Positions 1,943 through 50,119 of a stretch of 64,000 nt of DNA are shown one piece after another; the first letter of the stretch is position 1, and each line of letters starts with the position of its first letter. A program made the translations under genes and the position numbers. Source of the stretch: an uncultured Verrucomicrobiae bacterium (lineage in GTDB: Bacteria > Verrucomicrobiota > Verrucomicrobiia > Chthoniobacterales > JAFAMB01); contig CAVXLD010000001.1 of assembly GCA_963762565.1 (NCBI GenBank), positions 1,152,001-1,216,000 on the forward strand. The letters are read 5' to 3'. The notes beneath the pieces are model-generated. The model made no database searches and was not told the origin of the DNA. It worked only from the letters and a program-made list of their open reading frames with translations.

Positions 1943-2593
1943 ATGCCCCAGTCCAAATTCCCTTCCTTCCAGCGCGCCCGGCAGCCCAAGCAAATCGAGC
2001 AAAGACGAGAAGCGATTTTGGAAGCAGCTTTGGTACTGTTTCAGAAAAAAGGCTTGAAAAATGTCACCTTGGTCGACATCGCGGAAAAGGTCGGCACCGC
2101 TACATCGAATATCTATCGGTATTTCGACAGCAGAGAGCACATCTATCTGAGCGTTTTGCAACGACAGGGTTCCGAGTGGGAGAAAAGAGCAATGCCGGCT
2201 CTTGACGCGCTGAAGAGAAAGGGAACCGCCGCGAAAGTGGCAGAGGTGCTGACGCGCTCCTTTATTCAGTCCGTGGAATATTCCACCTTGATAACGGCCG
2301 CCAATACCGTCCTGGAAAAGGAACTATCGCCCGAGCTCGTGATAGATTTCAGATCGGGTTTGCTTGAACGCAGGAAACGCTTGGCTCAGGCTTTAGCAGC
2401 AGCCTTGCCCGGCACCCGCGTCGAAGAGATATTTCCTTTGACCCTGCACATCTTTACCCATGTCGCCGGCTTGTGGCCTTTCTGCCATCCCTCTTCCGAA
2501 TCGGAGAAATTGTTAAAGGATCCCGAACACGCGCATCTCAACATCAATTTTGAAATTGAGATGAAACAGTTTCTGTTGCGCTTCCTGAAATGA
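1943..2593 (+). CDS. TetR family transcriptional regulator
   Basis: FQRARQPKQIEQRREAILEAA...VTLVDIAEKVGTATSNIYRYFDSREHI HTH; divergent from the dehalogenase remnant. Confidence 0.9.
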   Translation: MPQSKFPSFQRARQPKQIEQRREAILEAALVLFQKKGLKNVTLVDIAEKVGTATSNIYRYFDSREHIYLSVLQRQGSEWEKRAMPALDALKRKGTAAKVAEVLTRSFIQSVEYSTLITAANTVLEKELSPELVIDFRSGLLERRKRLAQALAAALPGTRVEEIFPLTLHIFTHVAGLWPFCHPSSESEKLLKDPEHAHLNINFEIEMKQFLLRFLK

Positions 2594-2934
2594 ACACCCC
2601 TGCCGGTATTAAAGCCAGAGACAAAGGGGGCCGAAGCGGTAACCGAGTATTCGGCGCTTCTCTTAACCGCCTCAGTGCCGCTGACCAGGCAACCCTCAGC
2701 CGGATCGTCGACCGATCGCAGCCCTTCGGGGACCGAAATCCGTAAGTACGAAATCTCGAACTAACATCCGCTCGAGTCCTTTCTCGCGTAACCCTCTCGT
2801 GGACAGGCATGAAAGAGTCCACTATGATGGGTCGGCACGAAATCTGTTTGTAGAGCACTCCTAACCCCCCGAACCCAGCGCTTGGATGGCCGATAGTGAA
2901 ATCCCGGATTGCGCCGAAACCCTAGTGCCCACTT

Positions 2935-4728
2935 ATGAATCACTCACAGGAACTTCAGTGGATTGATTATTTCGTGATGATCATTTACTTCGGCTTTGTC
3001 CTCGCCATCGGCTTCGTGCTGAAGCGTTTCATGCGGACGAGCTCCGAGTTTCTTACCGCCGGCCGTTCTATCCCTGCCTGGGTTGCGGGACTTGCTTTCT
3101 TGTCGGCGAATCTGGGTGCACAGGAAGTAATCGGGATGGCCGCTTCCGGGGCGAAGTACGGCATTGCCACCAGTCATTTTTATTGGTTGGGCGCCATTCC
3201 CGCGATGGTTTTTGTCGGCATTTTCATGATGCCCTTCTACTACGGTTCTAAAGCCCACTCGGTGCCGGATTACCTTTTGCTGCGGTTCGACAAAAAAACC
3301 CGCAGTCTTAACGCCATGACCTTCGCAGTCATGACGGTGATGTCTTCCGGGATTTCGATGTATGCCATGGCGCTACTGATTCAGACTTTGCACATCTTCG
3401 ACACGCCTTTCCAAATGTTGGGACTGCCGAACTCCTGGGTGTTTCACGTTAGCATCATCGTTTCGGCTGTGATCGTGCTTGGCTACATCTTCCTCGGCGG
3501 GTTGACCAGCGCCATCTACAACGAAGTTTTGCAGTTTTTCCTGATCGTGGCCGGGTTCGCTCCGCTAGTTTTCCTAGGACTCAAAAACGTCGGCGGGTGG
3601 TCCGGCCTAAAAGAAAAGCTTCCTTCTGCCTTTGTCCATACATGGAGTGGAATGGGAAACCCGCATAACAATCCTTTGGGGGTAGAATGGTTCAGTCTCG
3701 TTATGGGGTTAGGGTTCGTGCTTTCCTTTGGTTATTGGTGCACCGATTTTTTGGTGGTGCAGCGAGCCATGGCGGCGGACTCGATGAGCGCTGCTCGTCG
3801 CACACCGCTGATCGCAGCCGTACCGAAGATGCTGTTCCCCTTCCTAGTGATCTTCCCGGGCTTAATCGCGTTAGCGCTTACTCAGCCAGCCCATTCCAGC
3901 TCCGCGACTAAGAGTGCGGAGGTAGCTAATGTCCAACTCATTGCCCCGCAGGTGAATGTGGAGACGGGTCAGGTGGTCAAGGACAAAGAAGGCAATCCAG
4001 TGCTGGACTACAACACGGTTATTCCCCAAATGCTTCTGCACTATTTCCCCAGCGGAATGCTCGGGCTGGGACTAACCGCGCTGCTGGCCAGTTTTATGTC
4101 CGGGATGGCAGGTAATGTGACCGCTTTCAACACGGTGTGCACTTACGATATTTACCGGGCTTACGTCCGGAAAGACGCGGACGATGAACACTACTTCAGG
4201 GTAGCTCATTTCATGACGGTCTTCGGCGTGGCTTTATCAGTGGGTGCTGCCTACTTCGCTGCCGCGTTCAACAATATTATGGATATCCTGCAGTTGGTGT
4301 TCGCTTTCGTTAACGCGCCCTTGTTCGCCACCTTCCTGCTGGGGATGTTCTGGAAACGCACCACGGGCCATGGCGCGTTCTTCGGCTTGCTGAGCGGGAT
4401 CACCGCCGCCGCGCTTCACCAAGGCTTGACCATTCCAGAGGGCAGTGTCCCCGGGATCAAAGGCGGTTGGATCGCCATCGTGAACACCTATTCAAGTGAG
4501 ATGGCCCAGAATTTTTGGACGGCCATCTTTGCCTGGACGACTTGTTTTGTAGTGACCATCATTATCAGCCTGGCCACCAAGCCGCGACCGGACAACGAGC
4601 TGAAGGGGCTCGTCTATTCTCTCACTGAAAAAGAACGCGAAGTGTCGCTCGCCTGGTACCAGCGCCCGGTCCTGTTGGGGGTTGTGGTTTTGGCCCTGAC
4701 GCTTGTGCTTAACATCATCTTCTTTTAA
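2935..4728 (+). CDS. sodium:solute symporter (SSS family)
   Basis: 597 aa polytopic protein; FLTAGRSIPAW, ANLGAQE, YWCTDFLVVQRAMAA, ASFMSG motifs. Confidence 0.93.
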   Translation: MNHSQELQWIDYFVMIIYFGFVLAIGFVLKRFMRTSSEFLTAGRSIPAWVAGLAFLSANLGAQEVIGMAASGAKYGIATSHFYWLGAIPAMVFVGIFMMPFYYGSKAHSVPDYLLLRFDKKTRSLNAMTFAVMTVMSSGISMYAMALLIQTLHIFDTPFQMLGLPNSWVFHVSIIVSAVIVLGYIFLGGLTSAIYNEVLQFFLIVAGFAPLVFLGLKNVGGWSGLKEKLPSAFVHTWSGMGNPHNNPLGVEWFSLVMGLGFVLSFGYWCTDFLVVQRAMAADSMSAARRTPLIAAVPKMLFPFLVIFPGLIALALTQPAHSSSATKSAEVANVQLIAPQVNVETGQVVKDKEGNPVLDYNTVIPQMLLHYFPSGMLGLGLTALLASFMSGMAGNVTAFNTVCTYDIYRAYVRKDADDEHYFRVAHFMTVFGVALSVGAAYFAAAFNNIMDILQLVFAFVNAPLFATFLLGMFWKRTTGHGAFFGLLSGITAAALHQGLTIPEGSVPGIKGGWIAIVNTYSSEMAQNFWTAIFAWTTCFVVTIIISLATKPRPDNELKGLVYSLTEKEREVSLAWYQRPVLLGVVVLALTLVLNIIFF

Positions 4729-4758
4729 ATCCTTTAATAACCTGAAATTACGAGTCTT

Positions 4759-4998
4759 ATGGGTTTCGATATTCGGCTGCCGATCGGCTACTTGTTCACA
4801 ATTTTTGGGGCTTTGCTGGTGCTCTTTGGCCTTTTCACTGCTAATGCGGACATGTATCAACGTTCGCTCGGGATCAATATTGATCTCTGGTGGGGAGGAG
4901 TTTTGTTGATCTTTGGACTACTTATGGCTTTTGCTGCGCGAAAGGCTAAATCGCGGAATCGCACTGGTCAGCCGCAGCGCCCGCCGCCGTCAAAATAG
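4759..4998 (+). CDS. small 2-TM membrane protein, SSS-associated
   Basis: MGFDIRLPIG...GINIDLWWG; directly downstream of the SSS gene. Confidence 0.75.
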   Translation: MGFDIRLPIGYLFTIFGALLVLFGLFTANADMYQRSLGINIDLWWGGVLLIFGLLMAFAARKAKSRNRTGQPQRPPPSK

Positions 4999-5272
4999 CC
5001 GGAATCAACCTGATTGAGAATGCGCCGGACCCGAACGATCGCGATAGCAATCGCTTGGGCCCACGATTGAGCGGAGCGGATAACTAGCTCCGTAGGAGCG
5101 CAATCTTTATAGATAAACGGCAGAAAAGAAGGAGTTAGAGGAGTCCAAGGAGTTGCAGGAGGTCAAGGAGGCGGAGCCGTGGAGCGCTGCCTCGCCTCCG
5201 CCTTCGCCATGCCACGGCGCGATCCGACAGCCGCCCATGCGTGTTAACATAAGCAGTCGCGGAACCCCTGAT

Positions 5273-5394
5273 GGGGAGGGCGCGCGTCCCCGCGCCCGCG
5301 AAGACGTTCCCGAAGCCAACGGTGCATTTTCGTCCTTGATCAGGGAAGGCTATGGGCTTCGGGAACGGCGGATCGCGAGGACGCGATCCCTCCC
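5273..5394. repeat. paired REP-like element, GGGAGGGCGCGCGTCCCCGCGC family
   Basis: Arm at 5273 and inverted arm GAGGACGCGATCCCTCCC ending at 5394; related copies near 33793, 45148-45267, 54821-54848, 56953-56980 and 61312-61442. Confidence 0.8.
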
Positions 5395-5472
5395 AGCGCT
5401 GGGTCCGGCAGCTGCTGGCCTAAGCCGCTCGGGCAGCTTGTGGAGCTTGGCTCCGGTCTCCGGCCTGGTTCG

Positions 5473-5889
<417 letters not shown>

Positions 5890-5890
<1 letters not shown>

Positions 5891-6135
5891 GAAAACGGAA
5901 GTGGGAAAAACGGAAGTGCGAAAACGGAAGTGGGGACAGGTCAATAGTCAGCAAAAAGTCTAGCTGTCCAGCACCACCGCGACTTGCTCAACGAACGAAA
6001 ACGGCGAAAACGGAAGTGGGGACAGGTCAATAGTCAGCAAAAAGTCTAGCTGTCCAGCACCACCGCGACTTGCTCAACGAATAACTGACCTGTCCCTAAG
6101 CCGACTGACCTCTTCGGAAATAGCTGACCTGTCCC
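5890..6135. repeat. GGGACAGGTCA(A/G) REP-like cluster with 86-bp-period tandem duplication
   Basis: GAAAACGGAAGTG x3 (5891-5932); motifs at 5932 and 6018 (+), 6085 and 6124 (-); 5919-5995 is repeated at 6005-6081. Confidence 0.9.
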
Positions 6136-6143
6136 TTTCTTTT

Positions 6144-6907
6144 CTATCCTTGGGACGGGTTGAGCACCCAAGTAACTTCCTTTGCGGCACTAACAAAACC
6201 GAGATTCCGTAGAATCGGTTTACTGGTCTCGCGTGCTTCGGTGCTCAGGTGCTGAAGACCGCGGCGTCTAGCCTCTCTGGCGCGTTCTGCCACGAGCGCT
6301 CGATAAATACCCATGCGCCGATAAGACGGCGCCACCCTCCTCCGAAAAGCAGGCCAAAAGAACTCGGTAACCCAATTTCCAGGCGGGCCGAAGCGGCGAT
6401 CTCGGCAGAAACATAAGCAACGTAGAGCGCCAGGTCCGGATCGCTGAGCCGATCCGAATAGGCTGTACGCTGCCAAGTGTCCAGTCCGCCGAACGCTTGC
6501 TCCGATGCCTTCAAAAAGTCTTCAAGTTGTTCCTCTGTCGTGACCCTGCGGATATCGACATTGCCCGCGGTCGACGCCTGCACCTCATTCGCCAAATCAA
6601 AGATCATCAATGTTCCCGCAGCGTCCGGCTCGAATCCTTCCTCGGCGAGGCAACCGGAAATCTCGGCTGGAGAATCATGCTCGTAGACTCTCCACATTAA
6701 CTTCTCACCTCGTGATCTAAAGTGGGCAGCCTGGCTAGCCACGGCTTGGCGCACCGTACTTGGAGTTAGCTCCCAACAAGAAATGAAGTTGAAATAACCC
6801 GTTAAACAGACAACGCCGTCCGCTCGCTCAACCACCAGCCCCGGTGGCGCTTTGGGGTTGGCGCGCACTTCCGCGTCATATTGGGCCAGCACACGCGCGA
6901 GATCCAC
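6144..6907 (-). CDS. GNAT acetyltransferase (single frameshift near 6335, possibly a sequencing error)
   Basis: ORF 6245..6907 ends LLFGGG; the other frame continues VAPSYRRMGIYRALV...LSTEARETSKPILRNLGF (acetyl-CoA motif). Confidence 0.8.
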
Positions 6908-7055
6908 AGTATCAGTTTACCCGACGTCAAGCTCTAGAGGAAGGGGCGCTTCACCGGGGTCGCGTCTATACCAAACCTGACTGGCTTCGCTTGTCAGGGC
7001 CAGCTTGCGGCGCCCCTGTTGCTCGTTCCCATAAGGGACCGTTCACTCGTAGACC

Positions 7056-7222
7056 ACGGTCGTGAATTGGGGACAGGTCAACGGTCGTGAATTGGGGACA
7101 GGTCAATAGTCTGCAAGGACAGAGATCTGAGTAGGGACAGGTCAACTGTGTTGGTTGCCGCGTAAGCCATTACGCGTGAGCACGTGCCGTCAATTGGTTC
7201 GCAAAATGGCTGACCCGTCCCC
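7056..7222. repeat. GGGACAGGTCAA REP-like cluster
   Basis: 25-bp tandem ACGGTCGTGAATTGGGGACAGGTCA x2; motifs at 7069, 7094, 7134 (+) and 7210 (-, one mismatch). Confidence 0.9.
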
Positions 7223-7338
7223 TTTCTTCTCTGCAAAACACATTTAAACAATACGCGCTCTCACTCGAGTCCGGACGTCCGTAAAATCCGTTCGCTAATT
7301 AATTACCGGCCACGCCGGGCGCCGGCCTAATGACTCAC

Positions 7339-7488
7339 CTATCGCCGGCGCTTCCGAGATCCGCGAGAGCCTTTTGCGATGGCCCGAAATGCCAAGATTG
7401 ACGCAAGTAACGCCACCACGATCAGGGCACACAACAAGAGTGCCGATGACGCTTGGTCTCCGAGCATCTGCGCGAAGTTTGATTCCAT
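7339..7488 (-). CDS. putative 49-aa single-TM small protein
   Basis: Manual translation MESNFAQMLGDQASSALLLCALIVVALLASILAFRAIAKGSRGSRKRRR*: hydrophobic helix followed by a basic tail. Confidence 0.5.
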   Translation of the reverse strand: MESNFAQMLGDQASSALLLCALIVVALLASILAFRAIAKGSRGSRKRRR

Positions 7489-7604
7489 AGAGTGACACTC
7501 AGTAAAGCGGTTTTCCAGGGACCGTAAGAAAGGGACAGGTCAACTGTGCCCGTTATCGTGCAGGCAAGTACAGTAGGGTGCCTGTCGCAATAGAGGCTGA
7601 ATTA

Positions 7605-8916
7605 GGGACAGGTCAATAATCATGACTAACCGCAAAGGAAACCAAACAAGGTGCGGATCAATAGAAGATAACAGGCAGCGCTTTTGCCGGGGACCCTTCG
7701 GAAAGCTTTAAAACGGGGGAAAGCGTTCGAGGCCGTGCCCGCGGACGTGGCTCGACCTGCGCGAAGGCTAAAATGCTAGGCTAGCTGACCGGCCGGAGAC
7801 GGAGATTGCGGAGCACCCAGATCTGGTCATCGGCTATGACGGGCAGCCGGTAGCCACGACCGGATTGGGTAGGAGCGACGATTTGTCTGCAACGGGCGAA
7901 TTGTTCTTGCACAAATCCCCGGCTACCGAGGATTCCGCCATCGGTAAAATAGCGTATGCGGCAGCGCAGAAGGTCCGCCAGTGGGATCTCGCCTTGCTGC
8001 TGCTGGAGTACTTTCTGGGCAAGGTCCCCTTCAATGGTCGCACCCACTTTGGAAGCAGCCGTTCCGGTTCGAAAAAGCAGCTTGCGATATTCCCGGCGCG
8101 CATCCTTCCAATTGCTCTCTGTGCCTAGGCCTAATGTCTCCTGAATCCCCAGTTTGGCGTGGGCCGAGTCCTTAGCGATCGCCTCGGCGTAGCCACAATA
8201 GCGGTAGTCTTTCGGATCTTCGCATAGCCCAGCCCTAAGCGGATTTAAATCGATATAGGCAGCTACCGCACTTAAAGCTTGGCCCTCCTCGATTAATACA
8301 CTCTTAAAGCGCTCCGCCCACAGAACCCCGTATCGGTGATGGCGTCGATTGTACCACTGTGCAAAGCGGCCCTTGAGCTCCTTCATGTAAATCGATACGT
8401 CAAAGAGCCTGCTCAAGTGATGCTCCCTGAGCTGTTGCGCCTGATCGCTCAAGCTTGCTTCTTTGGCGTAGGCGGCTAGTTGCTGAGCCACTTGAGTGCG
8501 CCGCTCTGGCCCGTAGCCAAGCTCGATACAATCCAGCAACTCCTGGTCGGAAAGTGTTCGTCGTTCCGGCACCTTGCACAAGATATGAAAATGGTTGGCC
8601 ATCAAAGCATAGGTTAGCACTTGCACGCAGCAGGCCTCCTCCAGCCGCCGCATCAGGTGAACGAAGTGCTCGGCTTCAATCGAACCAGGGCTTTGGGTCC
8701 GAAACAGAAATCGCCCATCGACCACTCGTGACATGCAGTGGTAGAAGGTCTGTCCTTGTCCTTTGATTCGTGGCTGTCGCATTGGTGCTCAGCCCACATT
8801 CATAACACAAATCATTGCTGTATCAATATTTTCTCTTTGATAACCGAGTGGGCGACCCCCGGGGTAGCCCTCATATCCTTCGGTCCGCCCCCCGTCTTGA
8901 ATAATTGACCTGTCCC
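7605..8916. mobile_element. REPtron-like unit: RAYT bracketed by inverted GGGACAGGTCAAT motifs
   Basis: GGGACAGGTCAATAAT at 7605 and ATAATTGACCTGTCCC ending at 8916 flank the RAYT; extra motif at 7532; GC hairpin at 8850-8870. Confidence 0.7.
7781..8782 (-). CDS. REP-associated tyrosine transposase (RAYT/TnpAREP, Y1 HUH superfamily)
   Basis: YHCMSR, YALMANHFHIL (HUH), YN....G.LW.ERFKS, YIDLNPLRAGL (catalytic Tyr), DP.DYRYC and C-terminal RYFTDG.ILGS..FV. Confidence 0.92.
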   Translation of the reverse strand: MRQPRIKGQGQTFYHCMSRVVDGRFLFRTQSPGSIEAEHFVHLMRRLEEACCVQVLTYALMANHFHILCKVPERRTLSDQELLDCIELGYGPERRTQVAQQLAAYAKEASLSDQAQQLREHHLSRLFDVSIYMKELKGRFAQWYNRRHHRYGVLWAERFKSVLIEEGQALSAVAAYIDLNPLRAGLCEDPKDYRYCGYAEAIAKDSAHAKLGIQETLGLGTESNWKDARREYRKLLFRTGTAASKVGATIEGDLAQKVLQQQQGEIPLADLLRCRIRYFTDGGILGSRGFVQEQFARCRQIVAPTQSGRGYRLPVIADDQIWVLRNLRLRPVS

Positions 8917-10665
8917 TGTCTTGGTCTTGGTACTTCCGCGAGATTTAGCCGCGTAACGAGCGTGTTAGGATGCTCGGAACCGAGCACTTTTTCTTCTAAC
9001 TCCAACACCGATCGATACTCCGTTTCGTTTCGGCGTCCGCATATTTGCCTTGATGCAAAAGCGCGTTCCCCAGGTCGCTGCGGCTCCCTAACGTGTCCGG
9101 ATTTTCCGGGCCCTTAACCTTTCCTTTCAACCTGACCACGGTGCGGTACTCCGTCTCGGCTTCGACATACTTGCCTTCACTATCGAGAGTGTCAGCCAGG
9201 CCGCTGCGCGTTGTCAGCGTGCTCGGATCCTCCGGGCCAAGCACCTTTTCTTTGAGCCGCAGCAGCTCACGATACTCGGGTTCGGCATCGGCATACTTAG
9301 CTTGGTAGTCAAGGGCAAGCGCTAGATTGTTGCGCGTCTTCAATGTGTCCGGATGTTCGGGGCCAAGGATTTTCTCTCTGAGCTGAAGCACCGCCCGATA
9401 CTCCGTCTCGGCTTGGTCATACTTCCCTTGAAAGAAAAGCGCGGCTGCCAAGTAGTGTCGCGTTGTCATGGTGTCAGGGTGCTCTGGGCCGAGGATGCGT
9501 TCCTGTTCGGCTAATACATCGCGCAAAACCCGCTCGGCGTCGTTGTACCGGCCTTGATCGTGGAGAACCCAGGCGATAGCGAACTGGACCCGCGCCCACT
9601 GGGCCGGATCCCGGGTTTGGTCGGTGAGTTTCTCAGCATCACCGAGTCGCTTCAGAGCATCGGCGTATTCGACGCGTTTCTCGGCCGACCAGGCAGCCAG
9701 CTCAAACGCTTTGACCGCCTCGACGTTCTTTGGCGGCCCGGCGCGCTGCGCTTCGTCGGCGGCAGCGAGTGCTAGGCGCTCCGCTTCATTGTAATCCTTC
9801 GCCACATAAGCCGCGTTCGCCCTCTCGTAGGCTGTGGCATTTGGAGCCTTCTTCAGTTCTTCAGCGAACCGGGGGAGCTGTTCCTTTAAGGTCGCGGCGT
9901 CAATCCCGAGGTTTTTGGCGAGTGCCGCGTAGGTGCGCTCATCAATCTCTGCCGGTTTCTGGCCCGGCCTCTCCTGGCGCACTTTGTCCTGCACCTCGGC
10001 ATATGAATTGACACCCTGCAGCAGTTTTTCGACAGTTTCCTTGAGCGCTTGAAGCTGCTGATTAGTTTGGCGCTGCTGTTCGCTTGAGTGCTGCTGACCC
10101 TGCAATAGCCAAATACACAGGGTTACAGTCAAGATCATCAGCGCAGCAACCGACACGGCCCAACGCTTTACTCCTCGTCGGAGTTGGATGAGATCAGCCC
10201 GAAGCTTCAGCACGCTGGCTTCCAGCCCCTCGTTGCTGCTCAAGGGATGGTAAACGTGGCTATCCGCTTTAACGCGGGCGCGATAAGCGGCCTGAAGTTC
10301 ACATTTTTCCGGGTCTTCGCCCTCGTGTGGATCAGCAGGAAAAGTCTCGTCCAGGAAGAGGTACCAGACCTTTTTCCCCTTAATCTTAGCATAGAGCGCT
10401 TCGTATTGAGTGTAACTGGCGCGGCCGAAAGTCTCATCCGGTGCGGGCGGTTCTGCTCCGTAGCAGTTACCGACCAGTTGCACCCTCCATTGCTGGCCTC
10501 GACCCTTCGTCGCAGCATCGCGCGAAGGTCCCCTTCTTCGATGCCGAAGATATCCTGCCAATCCGGCTCGTACCCAAGGAATATCAGTGTGTTGGCTACG
10601 AGCTGGCGCGCGCTCTTGAGTTCGCGGCTGACAGCCGAGATGAAGATGGCGGGACGCGGAGACAT
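8917..10665 (-). pseudogene. DUF4062 - TM - TPR protein, two frameshifts, 3'-truncated at a REP motif
   Basis: N-terminal IFISAVSREL...VQLVGNCYG...SYTQYE (DUF4062) split near 10485; TM helix; LGPEHPDT TPR repeats. A GAAAC duplication near 9025 shifts the frame, and the last repeat runs into CCAAGA x2 plus GGGACAGGTCAA. Confidence 0.8.
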
Positions 10666-11003
10666 CAGAGTTTCAATGGGGGATGGCAAGGCTAACACCG
10701 AGGCCGGGTGAGGCGCCATCTAATTCCCCCCAGGGGTCACGATTATAGAGCGTGTTGCCCAAATCGATTCGCACAATAAGGAAAGATCACAAGACCACAA
10801 AGGTAACCCTGTCGCACCTCGCTGCGGGCAAGTTAGTAAAAGTTGTACAGTCGCTTCGAGAGTGCCTGCTACACTCGCCTCCTCTAAGTCAGTAGAACAC
10901 CAACCTCTTCTGTCTTTGTGACCTTTTCGTATTGTGATTTGAGGTTCTAAAAGCGGGAAGAGTCACGTTTCTAACAGCCACGATAGCGGCAAAACAGGTA
11001 TTT

Positions 11004-11151
11004 CACAGAAGATCACAAAGAACAGATACTTTGAACAGGAGGTAAGGGAGGAAACAGAGATAGAAGGTCGAGCTTAGCGCCAAGTAACCCTCCGTTGCCT
11101 CTGTTATCTCCTGTTTAAAATCCGTCTTTGTGGCCTTCGTGACCTTCTGTG
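11004..11151. repeat. nested inverted 9-nt periodic repeat element
   Basis: Outer pair CACAGAAGATCACAAAG / CTTTGTGGCCTTCGTGACCTTCTGTG; inner pair AACAGGAGGTAAGGGAGGAAACAGAG / CTCCGTTGCCTCTGTTATCTCCTGTTT. Confidence 0.75.
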
Positions 11152-11269
11152 GATGATTTCTTTTTTGCGGTCGTTGGTCACTCTTCTCATTCTCTGTCTT
11201 ACCCTTGCGACTCTGCGAGATTTTTTTCTTCTTGGTTGCAGCTTACCCATACTAGGATCCGCCGCGGCT

Positions 11270-11761
11270 ATGAAGACATTGTTCAGGATTGCTTTGTTGG
11301 TTCAACTGGTCAGCGGTGTCGGCACCACGTGCAAAGCGGCGGATAACGCCGACGCTGAATTGATGCGGGCTGCAACCGAATTGGCTCGACAATATGACGC
11401 TCGTTACGCTGCCCGGGATTCCGCCGGCATGGCGGCACTTTACGCCGCGGACGGGAGGTTAGTGTCACCTGAGGGTCCGACCCTGCACGGCCGAGTAGCG
11501 CTCACCGCTTACTAGAGCAAACGTTTCGCTACCGGATTCAGAGGCTACGTCACCAAAGTCGTGGAAGTCCATGCGCAAGGAAACAGCGGCTACGGCATCT
11601 CCGAATTCGCTGTCAGCACTCCCATTGTAAATCGCCAAACGCACCAACTGCATGGAACCATGGTCTCGGTCTACCAACATGATGCCGACGGTTGGCACTT
11701 TAGCTTGGTGGTTCACAGCGTCCCGGGAAGTAGGAGGGGAGACTTGGTCGGTCAAATGTGA
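11270..11761 (+). pseudogene. secreted NTF2-like (DUF4440/SnoaL) protein with in-frame TAG
   Basis: Signal peptide, D.AGMAALYAADG..VSP.GP.LHGR, TAG at 11513, then the same frame continues ...VYQHDADGWHF. Confidence 0.7.
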
Positions 11762-12020
11762 AGGCGAAAAGGGGTGAACCCCCTCGCCTTAGGCTCGGAA
11801 TGACAAATCACAAATGACAAATGACAAACGAAGGCACTCCGCGGATGACGCCCGTCGTGAATTTCGTGAATCTGTCATCTCGTTCGTCCATCTGCGGTTG
11901 GGTTTTGCGCCTTTAGTACGTAATTCTACGCATTGTCCCGAACCCGTTCTGTGCCAGGTTGGCTGAAAACAAGCTTCGGAAACCTCGCTTCCGTTGTAAC
12001 CAGTAATTCAAGCCATATAT

Positions 12021-12525
12021 ATGCCTGCTACAATTAGCCCTTGGTTCAACAGGGGACGATGTTAAGCGTCTCCAGCGGGTTCTCGCGCGACATTTGCTCT
12101 GGAATCCATTCGGTCCTATAACGGGAGTGTTCGATGCGAGCCTCGAGACCTCTGTAAAGTCTTTTCAACAGGCAAATGGATTGGTAGCCGATGGGGTTGT
12201 TGGTCCGACAACCTGGGCGAAATTGCCCAGCTATCGCGAAGCATCACCAGAGTTGAAAGAAGGATGGAAGGGACCGGCTGTAGCTTGGCTGCAAAAGGTG
12301 TTGGCCGGGCAGGATTTTGTGATCAATTTTACCCCGTATAACGGTGCCATCGACGGCATCTTCGGTCCGAAAACTGACGCCGCCGTACGCGCATTACAAA
12401 CCTGGGCCGGCCTGCCTCCAAACGGCGTTTTGGACGACAACACCTGGTTCACCTGGATGGAACCCGGCTCCGCTTCGCAATTAACCCTCGAAGCAGCCTC
12501 CAATCTCACCGATGGCTTGTTGTAA
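12021..12525 (+). CDS. peptidoglycan-binding domain protein (two PG_binding_1 domains); +1 frameshift near start
   Basis: MPATIS/LGSTGDDVKRLQ, FQQANGLVADGVVGPTTW, DGIFGPKTDAAVRALQ. Confidence 0.8.
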
Positions 12526-12665
12526 TCCCAACCCGCTGGTTACAACTCTCGGTTTGGGAATCTAAAATAGGAACAGGTCACAGCTCCTGCATCGCGGTGG
12601 CCGGTGCACGCGGAAAGATTTGCAAAAATCAGAAGTCTTTTGCGTCAGGTTGATAGAGACGCCAG

Positions 12666-12983
12666 ATGATCTTCTACCATAGGACGAACGCTGCAAAAAC
12701 CATCTTGCGCTACGGATTTAGAGACGCAGAACGATTTCGCGGTTTCGAAAGCCCAGTTCTCCGGGGAGTCTTCATTTCTGACGTTCCGCTCGCGTGCATG
12801 GAAGAAGAAAAAGGGAGCCAAGTTCTGAAAATCACGCTCCCTGACGATTTTGACATCTCCGATTACGAATTGATCGAGAAGAGCAAACATTACCGAGAGT
12901 GGTGCATACCGTCGGAACTGATTAACCTACTCGGCCAGGTCGAACTCCCGGAAGGAGAAGCTGAATTGGGGACAGGTCAATAA
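12666..12983 (+). CDS. hypothetical protein, possible ADP-ribosyltransferase-like fold
   Basis: FYHRT..A..IL..GF, GVFIS, REWCIP pattern; the stop codon comes from the sequence GGGGACAGGTCAATAA. Confidence 0.5.
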   Translation: MIFYHRTNAAKTILRYGFRDAERFRGFESPVLRGVFISDVPLACMEEEKGSQVLKITLPDDFDISDYELIEKSKHYREWCIPSELINLLGQVELPEGEAELGTGQ

Positions 12984-13078
12984 TCGCCAACTGTCTGGCT
13001 ACCGGTCGTATTTCCAATGAAACAATTGACCTGTCCCTCGCCCTGGATTCAATTGACCTGTCCCTCGCCCTGGATTCA
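12968..13078. repeat. GGGACAGGTCAA inverted pair plus 27-bp tandem duplication
   Basis: Motif at 12968 (+), 13026 and 13053 (-); CAATTGACCTGTCCCTCGCCCTGGATT x2. Confidence 0.9.
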
Positions 13079-13205
13079 GACCTGGACCGGCCTGCCTCCA
13101 AACGGCGTTTTGGACGACAACACCTGGTTCACCTGGATGGAACCCGGCTCCGCTTCGCAATTGACCCTCGAAGCGGCATCCAATCTCACCGATGGCTTGT
13201 TGTAA
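13077..13205 (+). repeat. 129-bp direct repeat of the 3' end of the PG-binding gene (12397-12525)
   Basis: 5 mismatches in 129 bp, 4 of them synonymous. Confidence 0.95.
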
Positions 13206-13213
13206 GCTCAATC

Positions 13214-13435
13214 CGTTCGGCGTTCGGCGTTTGGCGTTTGGCGTTGGTCGGCGGTCGGCGGTCGGCGGTCGTTGCTTAGGACCGTCAGTTAGGGATAGGT
13301 GGACTGGGGCTTTTAATCGTGCTCGTGCTCGGGATTTGGAAGGCGAGGCGTGGGCGTATGGGCGTATGGGCGTATGGGCGATGCGGCGAATTGCTCAGCG
13401 TTTCGCCAATTTGCTATCTGCTATTTGCTATTTGT
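13214..13435. repeat. 7-8 nt tandem repeat tracts
   Basis: (CGTTYGG)n, (GGCGGTC)n, (TGGGCGTA)x3, (TGCTATY)n. Confidence 0.8.
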
Positions 13436-13514
13436 AGTCGCGAACGAGCCTCGGGCGAGTTCGTGCTACCGGCCTCACTTGCGCCTTCAAGAGAACCCGT
13501 TTAGGAAGGGAGCC

Positions 13515-14504
13515 ATGGATACCAGAACTGGCGTGACTCGGCGAGAGTTCCTGCGGAGTTCTTTGATCACTGCGGCGGGTCTGGCGACGGGCGTCTCCGG
13601 CGCTACCCTCTCTTCACCGCCGACTTTATCGGAATCACTGCGCCTCGTCTTCGCTACTGATACCCATCTGATGCAGAACAATGGCTTACGTTCGGCAGAA
13701 GGACTGGCTGCAGCGGTAGAGGCAATCAAAGAGTTGCGACCACGACCAGATCTGATCGTTTGCGGCGGCGATCTCACTCATCCCTGGCCAAACCTCGATT
13801 ATCCCGCCGCGAACAAACTGCTGGATCGTTTCCTTGGCATTTGGGCACCGCTGCATTCGATCGAGACCCATTACGTTTTCGGAAATCACGACTTCGTTGG
13901 CACGCTGAACCCGCGTGTTTCTCGACACGATCCGCGCTTCGGTAAGGGGCTGTTTGAGAAGCGCCTCGATCTCCCCAGGCTGTATTACTCATTCGAAAAA
14001 CGAGGCTGGCGTTTCATAATCCTCGACGATGTCTGGCCGAATCTGGACGGCAGCTACTACGGACAGTACAAGGCGGACCAGCTCGACTTCGTCCAAAGCG
14101 AATTAAAAGCCCACAAGGAAAAACCAACCGTCATCGCCAGCCATATCCCAGCGGTTTCCAATTTCGGGACATTGCTCGGATTCGCCAGATCTATTCAGAC
14201 CAATTTCAAGCATCGGCCTTCGCTGATTTCGAGAAACGGCAAGACGCTAGTCAATATCATTCGCCAGTCCGGAGCTAACGTAAAGCTGGTGCTTGCCGGG
14301 CATCTTCACCATCAAGAGAGGATGGAGGCCGATGGCGTTAGCTACCTCAACGGGGGCGCGATTTGTGGTAACTGGTGGAAAGGATCGATGATGGGCTGTC
14401 CGGAAGGATTCAATGTGATCGATCTGCACCCAGATGGTTCATTCGCGATCGCTTATAAGACGTTTGGTTGGGCTTGGGACAGGTCAACTGTTTCGGTTCA
14501 CTGA
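13515..14504 (+). CDS. Tat-exported calcineurin-like metallophosphoesterase
   Basis: TRREFL Tat motif; DTH, GGD, GNHD, SHIP and GHLH motifs; CGNWWKG. Confidence 0.88.
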   Translation: MDTRTGVTRREFLRSSLITAAGLATGVSGATLSSPPTLSESLRLVFATDTHLMQNNGLRSAEGLAAAVEAIKELRPRPDLIVCGGDLTHPWPNLDYPAANKLLDRFLGIWAPLHSIETHYVFGNHDFVGTLNPRVSRHDPRFGKGLFEKRLDLPRLYYSFEKRGWRFIILDDVWPNLDGSYYGQYKADQLDFVQSELKAHKEKPTVIASHIPAVSNFGTLLGFARSIQTNFKHRPSLISRNGKTLVNIIRQSGANVKLVLAGHLHHQERMEADGVSYLNGGAICGNWWKGSMMGCPEGFNVIDLHPDGSFAIAYKTFGWAWDRSTVSVH

Positions 14505-14524
14505 TTAGCAGCCGATCCTCAGCG

Positions 14525-15427
14525 ATGGATTCTCGACCACCAATTCTATTGGCCGTTTTCGGAGCCCTGCTTCTGACTCAGATAGCGGCCTCTGCATCTG
14601 ATCTGGCTTTTCTGGGTCCAAAAGGAAGTTATAGCGATGAAGCGGCAACTATATGGGCGTCTCGTGACCATATCACTGGCACTCTCCCTTTAAGCACGAT
14701 CAGCTCGATCGCAGAATCTGCCCGGGACGGACGGGTAGAATTTGGTTTGCTGCCATTCGAGAATAGTATCGGCGGATTCGTCGGGGAAACGCAGAAGCTC
14801 CTGCTGGCGGCGGACCTCGGATGGCGCATCATCGGAGACATTACTATTCCGATCAGTAACAATCTTTTGGTAAAGCCCGGGGCGAAGGCATCGGATCTGA
14901 AGAAAGTAATATCGCATCCGGAGGCTCTTAAAGAATGCGCGAAATGGCTAAAGACGAACTTCCCTGAACTGGCTCAAGAGGAAGTCAGCTCCACCGCGGC
15001 GGCTGCAGAAGCAGTTTCCAAAGGGGATGGGACTATCGCAGCGATCGCCTCGCCGGCGGCTGCGAGTGTTTATCAGCTGCAGATATTGTTCTCAAATATT
15101 GAGGACGATCGATCTAATGCCACGAACTTCGTGGTAATCGAAGGCGCCGGAGGCAATTTCTCAGAGCAAAATCCGACTCGCCTGGTTGTCCGAATCGAGG
15201 CAGCAAGCGGGACGGACATTTTTGCCCGGTTGCTAGACGCTCTGAATCGTCTTTCATTTAGTTTGACCAGCGCAGCCAGCGTAGCCACGGGCAGTCTAGG
15301 TTCACATCGATTCGCTCTCATATTGGACTCAAAAAAGGGAACAGATCTCGGCCAAATTCAAGATCTGCTTCGGCCTACCGGTGCTGTACTAGTCGGAGCG
15401 TACCGTCCCTCCGGCCTCGGACAGTAA
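14525..15427 (+). CDS. prephenate dehydratase-like protein with N-terminal signal peptide and degenerate ACT-like C-terminus
   Basis: AFLGPKGSYS, LPFENSIGG, SHPEALKEC..WL, SSTAAAA, IEDDRSNATNFVV. Confidence 0.8.
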   Translation: MDSRPPILLAVFGALLLTQIAASASDLAFLGPKGSYSDEAATIWASRDHITGTLPLSTISSIAESARDGRVEFGLLPFENSIGGFVGETQKLLLAADLGWRIIGDITIPISNNLLVKPGAKASDLKKVISHPEALKECAKWLKTNFPELAQEEVSSTAAAAEAVSKGDGTIAAIASPAAASVYQLQILFSNIEDDRSNATNFVVIEGAGGNFSEQNPTRLVVRIEAASGTDIFARLLDALNRLSFSLTSAASVATGSLGSHRFALILDSKKGTDLGQIQDLLRPTGAVLVGAYRPSGLGQ

Positions 15428-15501
15428 AAGATCGCAACGCGGCCGATCCTTCTAAAACCTTGAAACCGGACGCCTCGGTTTGCGGTAGAAAGCTAATACC
15501 T

Positions 15502-15669
15502 ATGGATTTTTTGTTTTTGGCCGCGGCGCACCAGCTATCAGCCAGCATGCCTCAAGCGTATCCGACATGGACGACTAGTAGCGGGGTCGAGATTATGGCG
15601 GACATAATTAGTGGCTTCCTCACGCTTGGTTTCGGCATCTTTATTTACCGGCTGCCCCCGGAAAAGTGA
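15502..15669 (+). CDS. small putative membrane protein
   Basis: 55 aa ORF with a C-terminal hydrophobic helix. Confidence 0.35.
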   Translation: MDFLFLAAAHQLSASMPQAYPTWTTSSGVEIMADIISGFLTLGFGIFIYRLPPEK

Positions 15670-15748
15670 AACCAAGACCTTTCGTTTTCGCCCGTGAGAA
15701 ATCCTCGCGTCCTTGTCCTTTGTGGCCTTCTGTGCTGATGGTGACTCC

Positions 15749-16584
15749 ATGATCTTCAAAGGTCTGTTCGGGCCAATGGCTGCTCTGATTGGCCTGGGGT
15801 TCTCTTTCCCGGCGGTCGCTGAAGCCGGTGGACCGGTTCGGCTTTACAGTGCGGACCGTACCCATAACGATTTTTGGGAAAACAGGGGAAGTCATCGCGA
15901 TCGAACAGGAGAACGGAGCGATGGGCCTCCAGGTTAAGGAATCGGACGGATTCAATGTCGAGGTGGTTAATCAGTTGAAGGAACCAACCAGTATCCATTG
16001 GCACGGCTTGATCCTACCCGCGTTGATGGACGGAGTTCCGTTTGTGAGCCAGGATCCAATTCCTCCCGGTGAGACTTATCATTATCAGTTTGCGTTGAAG
16101 CAAAGTGGAACTTACTGGCTCCATTCTCACTATGGTCTACAGGAACAATTGTTAGCCGCCGCGCCGTTAATCCTGGAAAGCGAAGCGCAAAACGCCAAGG
16201 CCGATGAACAATACACAGTGCTCTTGAGCGATTACTCGTTTACGTCGTCTGCAAAAATCCTCGAACGATTGAAGGGCGGTATGCCGGTTCAGCGGCAACC
16301 AACTTCTTCGTGAACACCGGAGCGTTGACCAGCCAGTTAACGGCGGTTGATGGAAAAGATATCGAGCCGGTATCGGGAAATTATTTTCAGTTAGGGATCG
16401 CGCAACGGATCGATCTGCTGATGAAAATCCCGGATAAAGGGGACGCTTTTCCTATTCTGGCCCAGCGTGCCACATCCTCTATCACGCGGCGGTGGGCATG
16501 TTCACGGTTCTCAAATACGACGGCGCCGATACCAAGTTTTGGCAACCCGAGAAAACGCTGACCGAGCTTAGGGGAGAGCGTTGA
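15749..16584 (+). pseudogene. multicopper oxidase with frameshift and two internal deletions
   Basis: TSIHWHG and GTYWLHSH, then a jump to AVDGKDIEP...AQRIDL, then a jump to CHILYHAAVGMF (C-terminal Cu site). Confidence 0.85.
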
Positions 16585-16590
16585 GTTTCC

Positions 16591-17193
16591 TCAATCGATT
16601 AACCGATCATCTGCGTGCGCTCTGAGTCGCTCCGAAAGAGCATCCGTGATATGTCGCATTAGATCAGGAGTCTCACGAGAAAACCCATATACCCATTCTG
16701 GAAAGTTGAGAGGCTTCTGTACTGCCCAGATCTCGTCGTGGCGATCGGGAGGCAGAATTTGAGCCGGATCGCCGACTGCGATCCATCCGATGGGAACAAA
16801 CACTTCGGGCGGAATGACCGTGCGCAAATGCACCGTCGCATGAGGTCGTACTTCCGCGCCCCGTCCTAATTTCGCTCCGTGAAAGATCGCCGCTGATGTT
16901 GCCACGAACACTTCATGCTCAAGAGAGGCACCGACGACATGAGCGTTGGGCCCAACGAGGCAGTGATCCCCAATGGTACACGCATGTTTTGCAGTCGCTC
17001 GAATGACAGCGTTTTCCATCACGATGCATTCGCGTCCGATCTGGATGAGGCCACCAGACTCACCCACTATTCGCGCACCGTAGAGAACGCGGGAGCCCGG
17101 ACCGACGTACACGTTGCCGCATATCGTCGCATCGGGTGCAATCCAAGCGGTCGAATCAATTTGCGGCCGATGCCCTGCGTGTTCAAATAACAT
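16591..17193 (-). CDS. gamma-carbonic anhydrase-like hexapeptide repeat protein
   Basis: PQIDSTAWIAPDATICGNVYVG and left-handed beta-helix repeats. Confidence 0.85.
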   Translation of the reverse strand: MLFEHAGHRPQIDSTAWIAPDATICGNVYVGPGSRVLYGARIVGESGGLIQIGRECIVMENAVIRATAKHACTIGDHCLVGPNAHVVGASLEHEVFVATSAAIFHGAKLGRGAEVRPHATVHLRTVIPPEVFVPIGWIAVGDPAQILPPDRHDEIWAVQKPLNFPEWVYGFSRETPDLMRHITDALSERLRAHADDRLID

Positions 17194-17480
17194 AGGTAGA
17201 TCCTCCGATTTCAGCGGTCTCCTCGGATGGGATTGAGTTTACCATAAGCAACCGGTCACCGTTAAACCATTGTTACACTTCGAGTCGCCGTTCTTGCACG
17301 CCCGCAGATTAACGCAGAGCCTCGCGCAGAGGACGCAAAGGACGGAGAGGTCCAATCGTCTTCTTGTTTGCGTCCGCTGCGAACTTTGCGCGAGGTTCTG
17401 CGTTAAGCGATGCGGCCGGCTTTTCGCGGCTATTCTATTTTGTTCCCCTGAAATCGGGCCCGATTAGGCATCGGCCTCGA

Positions 17481-18978
17481 CTACTGTGACGCCGCATCGG
17501 CGGCGGTACGGAAACCGATTTCAGACGACCGGTCCAGGGTGGGCGCCATGAGCAGATACTTGTTGTGATGATTCAGTTGGTACGCAGTCGGCGTCGAAGG
17601 AAAGTAGAAGTTGATAGGAAAGTTTGACTGCGGTTGGTACGCTGAACCGCCCCGAACTACGGCGGCGATCGTGTGTTCATCCGTAAACGTGTTTGTCCAT
17701 TGCCACACGTTACCGACCATATCGAGGACACCGAAAGGACTGGCGCCGCTCGGATGCGCGGTGACATCATCCGGAGGAGTCGTGTCGCGGCCGGTATTTA
17801 CCGTGGGAACGTTCGTTGCCGAGAAGGTACTACCCCAAGGATACAATCGGCCGTCAGTCCCTTGAGCTGCATACTGCCATTCCCATTCGTTTGGCAGGCG
17901 GCGTCCAGCCCATCGGACGTACGCTGCCGCGTCTTGCCAGGATACCCAAGTCACAGGTTTGTTGTCCCATCCCGCCTGGTAATGAGGATGAGCTGGGTTT
18001 GACCAGTCCCAATCGAGCAGGAAGTTATGAGTGTCCGCCGGACGATAGTTGGTCGCGTCCATGAAACCTTGATACTGCAGGTTCGTCACCTCGGTCTTAT
18101 CCAGGTAGAACGTATTGATCGTCATTTGATGACTGTGAGTGTAACTGGGTTGCGATTCCCACGGATATTGAACATCGGCGCCAGGTTCACCGTCTCCTTC
18201 GATCTCCGTGCCTTCCACGGTGAATTCGTAGGTACCTCCTGAAATGGTGACCATTCCGTTAGGTGGTTCCGAATACGGCTTGGTTGTCTCGGTTGGATTA
18301 ATGGCCTGGGTCAGTACGGTGTTAGCGGCGGAATAAGAGCTGAGCGGTTTAGCAGTCAATTGGCGCATCGTGGCCAGGAATTCCTTCAGCTTAGCTGGCA
18401 GATCGGCGGGCTTGGCGCCAAGGATTGCTCCGTAACCGCTGTCTTCAATAGAGAAAGCCAGGACGGCCGTCCCATTGCTAACAACCGGTTTCAGCTCAAC
18501 CCCATGCCAGAGATCGTAGTACACCTGCTTGGGGAAATCCGGGCATATCACGGATCAGTTGGTCCTGGTTTCGGCTATCGACGCCCATGTTGGGGTAGGT
18601 CGGCCAAAGCAAAACTGAATCGATCCCGCCGTACCGTTTATCCAAATCAGAGAGGTAGGTAGAGACAATATACTTACCGCTACTCACATCGTAAAAGTAC
18701 CGATCATGGGTCATCTCTTGGGGCTGAATCGGGTTGTGTTGGGTCCAGTTTAGCGGGGCGAATTGATAGATAGAATCATCGTAGTTAATGCTGGCCCGTT
18801 GCTGAGCCCGCCAGCTTTGCATAGCGGCTAACCAGGCGGCGGTATCACCAGGAGTATCAGGGCCGTTAATTTGAATATAATCAGGAAACACCAGCGTATA
18901 ACCGGCGGCATCGGCGTGTCCGGGGAGGGAAACGCCGATCAAGGCGAGAGCCAAACAGGGAAGAATATTGAATTTCAT
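17481..18978 (-). pseudogene. secreted SUMF1/FGE-sulfatase-domain protein with internal deletion near 18540
   Basis: N-terminal part RYGGIDSVLLWPTYPNMGVDSRNQDQLIRDMP joins out of frame to a C-terminal FGE domain (KPVTWVSW.DA, RLPNEWEWQYAA, DMVGNVWQW, IGFR). Confidence 0.75.
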
Positions 18979-19043
18979 ATTCAGGAGGAAACGGGGGAAC
19001 ATCGATTAGACGGCTAGCGCTTAAACAGCGACGTTGCGGCTGA

Positions 19044-46268: not shown

Positions 46269-46311
46269 TTCGCTTGCTACTCAATTTTACCCCTTTTATC
46301 CCTGATCCGCT

Positions 46312-46807
46312 ATGTCCGCTCCTTCTCCCCGCTGGCATCTAGCTCAAATTAATATCGGCCGAATCCGCCCCCATGACCGATTCGCTTATGTCGGGGTTTG
46401 TGGCCGAGCTTGACCCCGTCAATGCTTTGGCCGATACCAGCCCCGGTTTCGTCTGGCGACTTCAGACCGACGCCGGAGATGCTACCGGCATTCGCCCGTA
46501 CGATGACGAAACCATCCTCATCAATATGTCGGTGTGGGAAAGCGTCGAAGCTCTCAAAGCCTTTGTTTATCGGACACATCACGCCGATGTCATGCGCCAA
46601 CGAGAGAAATGGTTCGAACACCTCGACACCTATTTCATCGCCCTCTGGTGGATACCGGCGGGGACTATTCCGACGGTTTTAGAAGCCAAGGTCCGGCTCG
46701 ATCATCTCCGCGAAAACGGCGAATCTCCCTACGCTTTCTCTTTCAAGAGAGTCTATCCGCCGTCGTCACCTGTCACGGTTTTAGACAATGCGGCTGATTC
46801 TGTATAA
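46312..46807 (+). CDS. DUF3291 protein, copy 1 (frameshift near 46370)
   Basis: HLAQINIGR / [41 protein letters not shown]. Confidence 0.8.
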
Positions 46808-46848
46808 ACCGTTGGCGCACTTCGCCTTTCTCTCTACAGATAAGCATT

Positions 46849-47790: not shown

Positions 47791-47797
47791 AAAGGAT

Positions 47798-48041
47798 TCA
47801 CCACAAAGACACGAAGAACACAAAGACAATCCCAACCGCAGATGAACGCAGATTTGGAAGGGCCGTGCCACGCGCTCAGCGAAAGATGGCGCCACGATGC
47901 ACACGAAGCATTCGACGCAGCTTTGGCCGGTCTTTAGGTGGTTTGACCAATTCGTGTGCACAACGTGGCTTTTTTATCTGCGTTAATCCGTGTTCATCTG
48001 CGGTTGGCCTTTCGTTCGTGTTCTTTGCTCCTTTGTGGTGA
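47798..48041. repeat. nested inverted repeat element (also in copy 2)
   Basis: Outer pair TCACCACAAAGACACGAAG / CTTTGTGGTGA; inner pair CAACCGCAGATGAACGC / GTTCATCTGCGGTTG. Confidence 0.75.
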
Positions 48042-48053
48042 GTGCACTGCGGA

Positions 48054-49501: not shown

Positions 49502-49581
49502 GGGGGGTTCGGGTTGCGGGTTAGGAGTCACAGGTTTCGACTTACGCTACTCAATTTTACCCCTTTTATCCCTGATCCGCT

Positions 49582-50068: not shown

Positions 50069-50119
50069 TTCTGTATAAACCGTTGGCGCACTTCGCCTTT
50101 CTCTCTACAGATAAGCATT

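Follow-up and report, generated by a model that had tools for sequence, protein, structure and literature searches.

The motif GGGACAGG, which recurs in a stretch of DNA from an uncultured Verrucomicrobiae bacterium (contig CAVXLD010000001.1 of assembly GCA_963762565.1, positions 1,152,001 to 1,216,000), is the terminal inverted repeat (TIR) of a TIRtron. We show that this element ends about 13 nt beyond the motif, that arbitrary DNA is joined at this point and that the position of the other end varies. Judging from its placement, the motif would be the binding end of the resident Y1/HUH transposase encoded at 7781-8782, and this enzyme probably nicks DNA about 13 nt outside the motif and joins the end so formed to arbitrary nearby DNA. 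The boundary can be read directly from the junctions; we infer the nick, and the part of the enzyme in it, from HUH chemistry. An earlier interpretation of the same DNA (the sequence-only reading) had noticed genes terminating in or just before the motif and had proposed an attC-like cassette geometry in which each unit is an open reading frame (ORF) plus a downstream site. It missed the Y1 gene and the pairing of motifs into inverted dimers. Throughout, the window is the whole stretch of 64,000 nucleotides and plain coordinates refer to it; contigs of this genome (G000) carry C-numbers (C1, C3, C5, C7, C8, C11 and C12), stretches from relatives carry L-numbers, and junction offsets such as -13 are nt 5' of GGGACAGG.

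Fourteen exact copies of the motif occur in the window where 1.77 are expected, all of them within 5933-14483, and at up to two mismatches the 12-mer has 21 matches against 4.9 expected. GGGACAG is invariant by the design of the search; the preceding position is G in 22 and A in another 22 of 47 copies. Across the genome, 34 of 58 matches fall in 12 loci where two copies face inward as a dimer. These dimers are hairpins of 56-122 nt in which the motif forms the foot of the stem when folded, and they fold better than most shuffled sequences (z -0.8 to -5.7, 13 folds). Taken singly, an arm forms no hairpin; arms are non-palindromic, lack GTAG and may resemble the right end of IS608. Matches to the motif profile are concentrated near the enzyme, with 43 of 59 in the genome sitting within 60 kb of the Y1 gene or of its truncated copy on C12, a span of 3.9% of the genome. 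Two further families, B and D (GGGACAG[G/C]ACAC, 104 matches), were excluded because they are the ends, with outward polarity, of a dispersed element of about 290 bp. That element (270-290 bp, for example C1:226529-226796) has outward-facing ends GGGACAG[G/C]ACACTAG and accounts for the 104 matches genome-wide.

Inverted TIRs (7605+/8916-) bracket the Y1 gene, and relatives show an equal layout: by our count, 30 of the 32 close metagenome loci that extend far enough have an inward arm no more than 400 nt upstream of the orthologue. The product of 7781-8782 matches Pfam Y1_Tnp above the cut-off and has NHFH at 63-66 and YIDLNP at 176-181; H64, H66 and Y176 are unchanged in all 23 aligned homologues. 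NCBIfam REP_Tyr_transpos matched the 333-aa protein with E 4e-16, below its cut-off, and NF047646, used as a check for a REPtron, gave 59 of 80 bits. In a search of PDB sequences the single protein had no match, and its profile found weak matches to IS200-type transposases (E 0.05). The nearest relatives of the protein are found in Chthoniobacterales and other Verrucomicrobiota. Motif copies number 6-22 near 16 of 17 homologues of 45-59% identity and 0-3 near all nine homologues at 44% or less. The C-terminal half of a second Y1 copy, 80% identical, is present at C12:551618-552199 between two same-strand arms and is cut at -13. Also in this genome is a second TIR family, GGGGTCAGTCAA, which has Y1 genes of its own (C3:501538, C5:290834) and is located at C3:493900-508600, C5:289700-291700 and C7:630200-636400; it builds like arrays, in many cases as compact palindromes in which about 24 nt separate the arms.

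The outer boundary of the arms lies about 10-16 nt (mostly 12-15) 5' of GGGACAGG, and the DNA joined at it may be the 3' end, the 5' end or the interior of a gene, the end of another arm, or a copy of nearby DNA. Tandem duplications account for 12 of 47 close same-strand arm pairs, and each of them begins 10-18 nt 5' of the motif; seven of the 12 end at the last base of the motif or short of a full repeat there, and five partial duplications begin 10-14 nt 5' of it. In the window, an 86-nt tandem duplication in the cluster at 5918-6149 begins 15 nt 5' of 5933, and arms 7070 and 7095 form a 25-nt tandem duplication that starts at -13/-14 and finishes at the motif end. When three duplications from distant relatives are included, 14 of 15 motif-containing duplications begin 9-18 nt upstream against 4.5 expected, a result obtained in 0 of 200,000 simulations. 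The flanks behave similarly: 21 of 46 outer arms have an upstream flank with a homologue that ends within 120 nt, and 12 of these 21 end at -9 to -18, compared with 13 of 128 for a control set of 499 random intergenic positions (Fisher p 4e-6). Repeated dimers and longer local copies end at -3 to -16, mostly at -9 to -16. Over 229 arms, base bias begins near -15, with a purine bias at -15 to -10, and arms of the same type are at background identity beyond about -15. In the second Y1/TIR family of this genome -13 recurs at 3 of 13 junctions (90-99% identity), and in L151 a copied gene piece (98.9%) is joined at -12. Such a junction rule was not found in print for TIR-flanked enzymes, in a literature that was partly accessible.

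Several observations weigh against this reading. Only 3 of 90 arm pairs in distant relatives are clean duplications, and one of these begins at -5, as does the junction in the phosphoesterase gene described below. The interval from -9 to -18 was chosen post hoc, after the data had been seen, and when 135 arms of relatives were tested independently, the count was 8 of 29 against 5 of 43 (p 0.12), with seven of the eight at -13 to -15. The boundary is spread over about 8 nt and has no cut-site dinucleotide, unlike that of TnpA-REP (CT); no cut-site consensus was found in the arms beyond the purine bias. Gene calls came from our own hexamer caller, which makes gene starts uncertain. Finally, two congeners with an orthologue of 83-85% contain 24 and 18 motifs and three without a close match contain 2, 3 and 5, which speaks for a link between motif and enzyme; yet the latter three genomes are 78-89% complete and may still encode it.

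It might be argued that the dimers are ordinary miniature inverted-repeat transposable elements (MITEs) of a DDE transposase, or products of slippage or homologous recombination, and that the Y1 gene is a bystander. Genes resembling those of insertion sequences (IS) do lie near some clusters, and a separate MITE-like family also has GGGACAG in its ends. However, that family is dispersed and of opposite polarity, and the Y1 gene has arms on both sides across Verrucomicrobiota. Duplications also include single arms whose 3' extensions vary, and slippage would leave the 5' boundary unfixed. We regard this explanation as improbable.

HUH enzymes leave a 5'-phosphotyrosine and a 3'-OH that is able to prime synthesis or to attack the link (PMC8266576). 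In the mechanism we propose, the Y1 enzyme would bind the arm, nick one strand at a point some 13 nt 5' of the motif and remain on the 5' end as a phosphotyrosine, and any nearby 3'-OH could resolve the link. Re-joining after displacement synthesis would yield tandem duplications whose 5' end is fixed and whose 3' end varies. An upstream 3' end attacking the link would delete adjacent DNA, so that genes are clipped and recapped, and the displaced strand, attacking with its own end, would form circles able to carry the next gene. A nick at -13 combined with any nearby 3'-OH would thus account for the duplications, the clipped genes, the copied pieces (13077-13215; L151) and the cycle described below. 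Junctions that happen to land in last codons would be both tolerated and conspicuous, hence perhaps the pattern that drew the attention of the sequence-only reading.

That reading had suggested that homologues be aligned to see whether native C-termini were replaced at the motif. According to such alignments native C-termini are replaced in ORF 12666-12983, the metallophosphoesterase and the TPR gene, and probably also in the GNAT gene. ORF 12666 was described correctly as reading through the motif and stopping on the following TAA. It has no Pfam or NCBIfam match; among its 21 matches, 16 others were aligned with it and 15 of these have other endings, of which 11 lie within 0-5 residues of GQVEL (for example GQVELWEEIDP), while P0004 has the tail too. 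An unrelated 332-aa ORF in a relative (L142:8355-9353) finishes, as ORF 12666 does, in arm-encoded GLGTGQ*. In the phosphoesterase the motif does encode WDRST, but these are not the last codons as had been stated, since the frame continues for four more (WDRSTVSVH*). The protein ends FGW-AWDRSTVSVH* where all four congener homologues end FGW-RAS*, YGW-RAG* (twice) or FGW-KAG*, and an 818-nt contig of metagenome run X4 spans the junction. The TPR gene had been thought to run directly into 8916; its main frame stops at 8996, and only a shifted frame past a frameshift near 9025 reaches the motif. Its homologue in L037, at least 727 aa long, continues beyond the point, 16 nt from the TIR, at which the TPR gene breaks off.

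For GNAT, the stop codon (6146-6144) is indeed 8 nt from a motif (arm at 6135). The outer flank of this arm appears, from the sequence, to carry that stop codon, and the same flank recurs without GNAT on the same arm type in L141. The protein ends TWVLNPSQG* compared with TWVLP*, TWVLPPQ* and TWVLRSP* in three of three congener homologues; replacement is only probable here because the homologues are at 66-69% DNA identity. The two remaining cases concern genes that stop at a distance. The small transmembrane ORF is that at 7339-7488, and it lies 117 nt from 7221, much as had been reported. The peptidoglycan-binding (PG) gene stops at 12525, 45 nt before 12570 as described, but the copy at 12570 has two mismatches and about five chance matches of this quality are expected per window.

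There is no preferred gene direction at the arms. The sequence-only reading listed six cases with the motif in the sense direction at the 3' end of a gene; it omitted arms 5933, 7070, 7532 and 13064, whose outer neighbours (the MIP fragment, GNAT, the 49-aa ORF and the duplicated PG piece, respectively) adjoin them with their 5' ends, so that the count is 6 versus 4 and not 6 versus 0. At 32 loci of this genome (one contig-end locus was left out and one intragenic row at C11 was mis-assigned), flanking gene ends comprise 29 3' ends and 35 5' ends (p 0.53), and outer-side genes are 19 times sense (3') and 25 times antisense (5'; p 0.45). Relatives give 44 3' ends against 38 5' ends of 82. Nor did the proposed genome-wide check reveal a bias in distance (3' versus 5', Mann-Whitney p 0.33). 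Single arms are sense or antisense in 10 cases each, junctions inside genes of relatives are sense in three cases and antisense in two, and one gene has its arm at the 5' end here (C1:1146905) and at the 3' end in L187. It is true that nine of nine genes that end at dimers meet a sense arm, because inward-dimer geometry forces it. The idea that the unit is an ORF plus a downstream site holds for one such unit (7122-7492) and is not supported as a general rule, since the orientation bias vanishes genome-wide and in relatives.

Could the arrays nevertheless belong to a true integron, with an attC-like site downstream of each gene, fixed orientation and a tyrosine recombinase? The dimer hairpins fall in the size range of attC sites, some arrays are co-oriented (L090; C1:1125-1129 kb), and in relatives there is a weak excess of 3' ends within 120 nt of an arm (22 versus 11, p 0.08). 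Still, the attC reading fails. There is no direction rule; no integron integrase was found in this genome, which is 93.7% complete (no TIGR02249 match above the cut-off, the best reaching 78 of 265 bits); and the attC core consensus, RYYYAAC / GTTRRRY, searched as RYYYAAC..GTTRRRY, is present in none of 40 dimers. Moreover, homologous genes occur in congeners without a downstream site, and the motif tracks the Y1 gene. We give an integron next to no credence. Another possibility is that the hairpins are kept as RNA elements at 3' ends, as terminators or stabilisers, and for this reason come after genes. GTAG and CGTC REPs (repetitive extragenic palindromes) are mostly found downstream of ORFs (PMC3733652), and the folding of the dimers noted above would suit such a role; but the loci fall between divergent genes as frequently as expected from the genome (eight divergent and five convergent of 32; 742 versus 648 in the background), and RNA elements leave the clustering and the junctions unexplained. 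This, too, is highly improbable.

Contigs of four soil-metagenome runs were mapped onto positions 2500-19000 of the window, with joints taken from the 15 of 47 that were listed. Runs X5 and X6, which come from separate soil studies, contain 400-nt contigs that read 7122-7492 head to tail. They overlap themselves by about 30 nt and differ in their start point, which is the form of an assembly cycle, and the unit so closed is an exact match to the ORF plus downstream site of the sequence-only reading. A tandem array is as likely here as a free circle, because the depth of these contigs (9.5 and 6.65) resembles that of chromosomal contigs. In a further X5 contig, -13 of arm 13037 is joined to the downstream repeat, and both the duplicated arm and the PG piece are missing.

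Related arrangements exist elsewhere. In L187 and L142 dimers alternate with one to three genes beside the Y1 gene; L090 has three co-oriented genes with three dimers that are 93-98% identical, and L092 has another array of dimers and genes, with no Y1 gene on the stretch examined in either case. The second TIR family forms an array at C3:499-501 kb. On C12, an 813-nt copy (91%) of C7:8400-9204 is separated by gaps of 14 and 13 nt from outward arms on both sides, and the palindromes of family C here enclose a lipoprotein-like gene that is found, at 97% identity, between family-A arms in L154. In an empty-site test of 32 dimer loci, 14 had both flanks matched; two of these were collinear and represent the same TIR-bearing orthologous locus, and no empty site was found at the 12 non-orthologous dimers. 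On one stretch of C5 the junctions without a TIR are syntenic and the dimer junction is not.

A possible, though doubtful, extension is that the TIRYT enzyme acts as a machine for gene capture and shuffling. Units of a dimer plus a gene, such as 7122-7492, would form circles after nicking some 13 nt outside the motif and then enter a neighbouring arm at its -13 nick; in a variant, foreign DNA would be ligated between two outward arms. Either route might build arrays of accessory genes, in either gene direction, beside the enzyme, an integron-like outcome reached by HUH chemistry, and would extend the nick-and-join mechanism without excluding it. The self-closing contigs in two studies, the arrays in L187, L142, L090, L092 and at C3:499-501 kb, the C12 copy of C7 DNA between outward arms, the 97% identical gene between arms of either family and the lack of empty sites are all consistent with capture. 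However, the depth of the cycle fits a tandem array just as well, and no unit was found with the same dimer at two array positions. Genes are broken at many junctions, as in TPR, the C12 piece and a Nif11 gene of L143; gene direction is mixed, and two adjacent deletions can explain the C12 piece. Judging by stretches L140, L166 and L190, L154 and C3:500 kb may be one and the same hot spot. The lack of empty sites carries no weight either way, because island junctions without a TIR are also mostly non-syntenic in congeners. We hold gene capture to be less probable than its absence, though a serious candidate.

Like integron attC arrays, the present system has an enzyme gene beside arrays of accessory genes separated by palindromes of 56-122 nt; unlike them it has no IntI, no attC cores, mixed gene direction and imprecise junctions that often break genes. 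Rolling-circle, one-ended transposition of the IS91/ISCR kind has one fixed and one variable end and can carry adjacent DNA. In contrast to that kind, we find here a Y1 enzyme of RAYT type, two equivalent inward ends and dimers of about 100 nt that contain no gene. The closest description is that of TIRtrons, in which the gene for a Y1 transposase (TIRYT) is flanked by inverted repeats with GGGGWSAS (PMC3733652, Di Nocera, De Gregorio and Rocco 2013). As far as the accessible part of that paper goes, the two share a Y1 gene between such repeats, free TIRs as singles, dimers and clusters, and the lack of a REP hairpin or GTAG, while the fourth G is found here in only 22 of 47 copies; in the same part of the paper neither an end of the element nor a cut site is given, and there is nothing on gene clipping, duplication or a cycle that carries genes.

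The enzyme itself is like TnpA-Y1 subclass 2.3, which comes from Chromatiales and Alteromonadales and is described as being without identifiable flanking REP-like structures; TIRYTs belong mainly to subclass 2.1 (20 of 26) and none to 2.3 (PMC6006769, Quentin et al. 2018). Its length is 333 against a median of 325, the long insertion between the HUH and Y parts is common to both (the subclass has two insertions in its core), and NHFH/WAE/YIDLNP here are near-matches of NHYH/WE/YVDLNP there. Identity to a 325-aa Shewanella protein is 30%, the end of the insertion included, whereas the C-terminal tail differs and aligns poorly. With the REPtron/REPIN system (PMC8266576) it has in common HUH chemistry, doublet hairpins of about 100 nt and copies near the enzyme gene. 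REPs, though, are short self-folding palindromes with GTAG that are cut at CT or CA; here one arm alone forms no hairpin, and the cut would be distant from the motif and without a dinucleotide.

A TIRtron with locally spread mini-elements is thus a known kind. New are the 2.3-like enzyme with TIRs, the mapped end, the recapping of genes and the gene-carrying cycle. We found no publication on ends, cut sites or gene capture by TIRYT enzymes in a partly accessible literature that mostly leaves subscription journals uncovered. About one quarter of bacterial species carry class 2 TnpA-Y1 genes of unknown role (PMC6006769). The junction rule supplies a concrete substrate and a predicted cut position for TIR-flanked enzymes, which would reshape neighbouring genes beyond copying their own repeats. 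If gene capture were real, accessory arrays of integron-like form and new C-termini would arise beside the enzyme gene through HUH rather than tyrosine-recombinase chemistry, and confirmed gene-carrying circles would amount to a second, integron-independent route to cassette arrays in common soil Verrucomicrobiota. A preprint on the E. coli mobilome reports no REP circles, as far as its accessible part goes (10.1101/2024.07.17.603846). Capture might also offer a mechanism for the unexplained link of TnpA-REP with diversified Nif11/prochlorosin precursors; the prochlorosin preprint links tnpA-REP to diversified precursors, a claim qualified in a note, and detected no inverted repeats there (10.1101/2020.03.09.984088). 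As a separate observation, two Nif11 genes (Pfam) lie between TIR arms next to the Y1 gene in L143:167-1419, one of them cut at -13, a single case that parallels this link. At C5:584000-597500 some 13 Nif11-leader-like precursor genes stand beside an 890-aa ORF that, in our reading, resembles a LanM enzyme, about 6 kb from the TIR dimer at C5:603431-603552.

Table 1. Arms, genes and units in the window (arm names give the motif position and strand)
Feature	Coordinates	Strand	Remarks
Dimer cluster	5918..6149	.	arms 5933+, 6019+, 6096-, 6135-
GNAT gene	6144..6907	-	split by frameshift (6245-6907 and 6144-6476)
Arm cluster	7057..7234	.	arms 7070+, 7095+ and dimer 7134+/7221-
371-nt unit, dimer plus 49-aa ORF	7122..7492	+	starts at -12 of arm 7134; joint 7492->7122
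49-aa ORF	7339..7488	-	has a hydrophobic stretch and matches no Pfam family; also present with arm 7532 in the L187 array (93%)
Single arm, motif at 7532	7519..7543	+	upstream of the 49-aa ORF and antisense to it; counter-case to the 3'-end pattern
Inward TIR on the 3' side of the Y1 gene, motif at 7605	7592..7616	+	outer end near 7592 predicted from the -13 rule
HUH/Y1 transposase (TIRYT, like TnpA-Y1 subclass 2.3)	7781..8782	-	333 aa, frame intact
Inward TIR on the 5' side of the Y1 gene, motif at 8916	8905..8932	-	truncated TPR gene attached 16 nt outside the motif
DUF4062-like/TPR gene	8933..10665	-	frameshifted; about three repeats short at the TIR junction
Peptidoglycan-binding gene	12022..12525	+	native C-terminus, LTDGLL* vs LTSGLI* in L025
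Degenerate arm	12570..12581	+	two mismatches; may be chance or an old copy
Hypothetical gene, 105 aa	12666..12983	+	arm from about -15 encodes the last nine residues (GEAELGTGQ)
Dimer 12969+/13037- plus 27-nt duplicated arm 13064-	12954..13076	.	
Copy (94%) of the PG gene 3' end 12397-12535	13077..13215	+	joined at -13 of arm 13064
Metallophosphoesterase	13515..14504	+	last three native codons swapped for 10
Single arm, motif at 14476	14472..14487	+	homology to relatives ends 4 nt before the motif

Broken genes surround the TIRtron, namely a MIP fragment (5538-5798) and the frameshifted GNAT (6245/6476) and TPR (about 9025) genes; a SnoaL-like gene has an in-frame stop at 11513-11515, and the broken genes here could reflect decay or assembly error. 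The phosphoesterase and an MBL-fold-like gene (C1:1145651-1146469) are adjacent in genome G003 (L023). Here they are 19 kb apart in permuted order with the TIRtron between them, and a similar permutation of gene order is seen at C8:93699-95287 relative to L093. Outside the region of the arms, 46276-48196 and 49546-51468 are near-identical direct repeats about 3270 nt apart, which suggests a tandem duplication of 3.27 kb.

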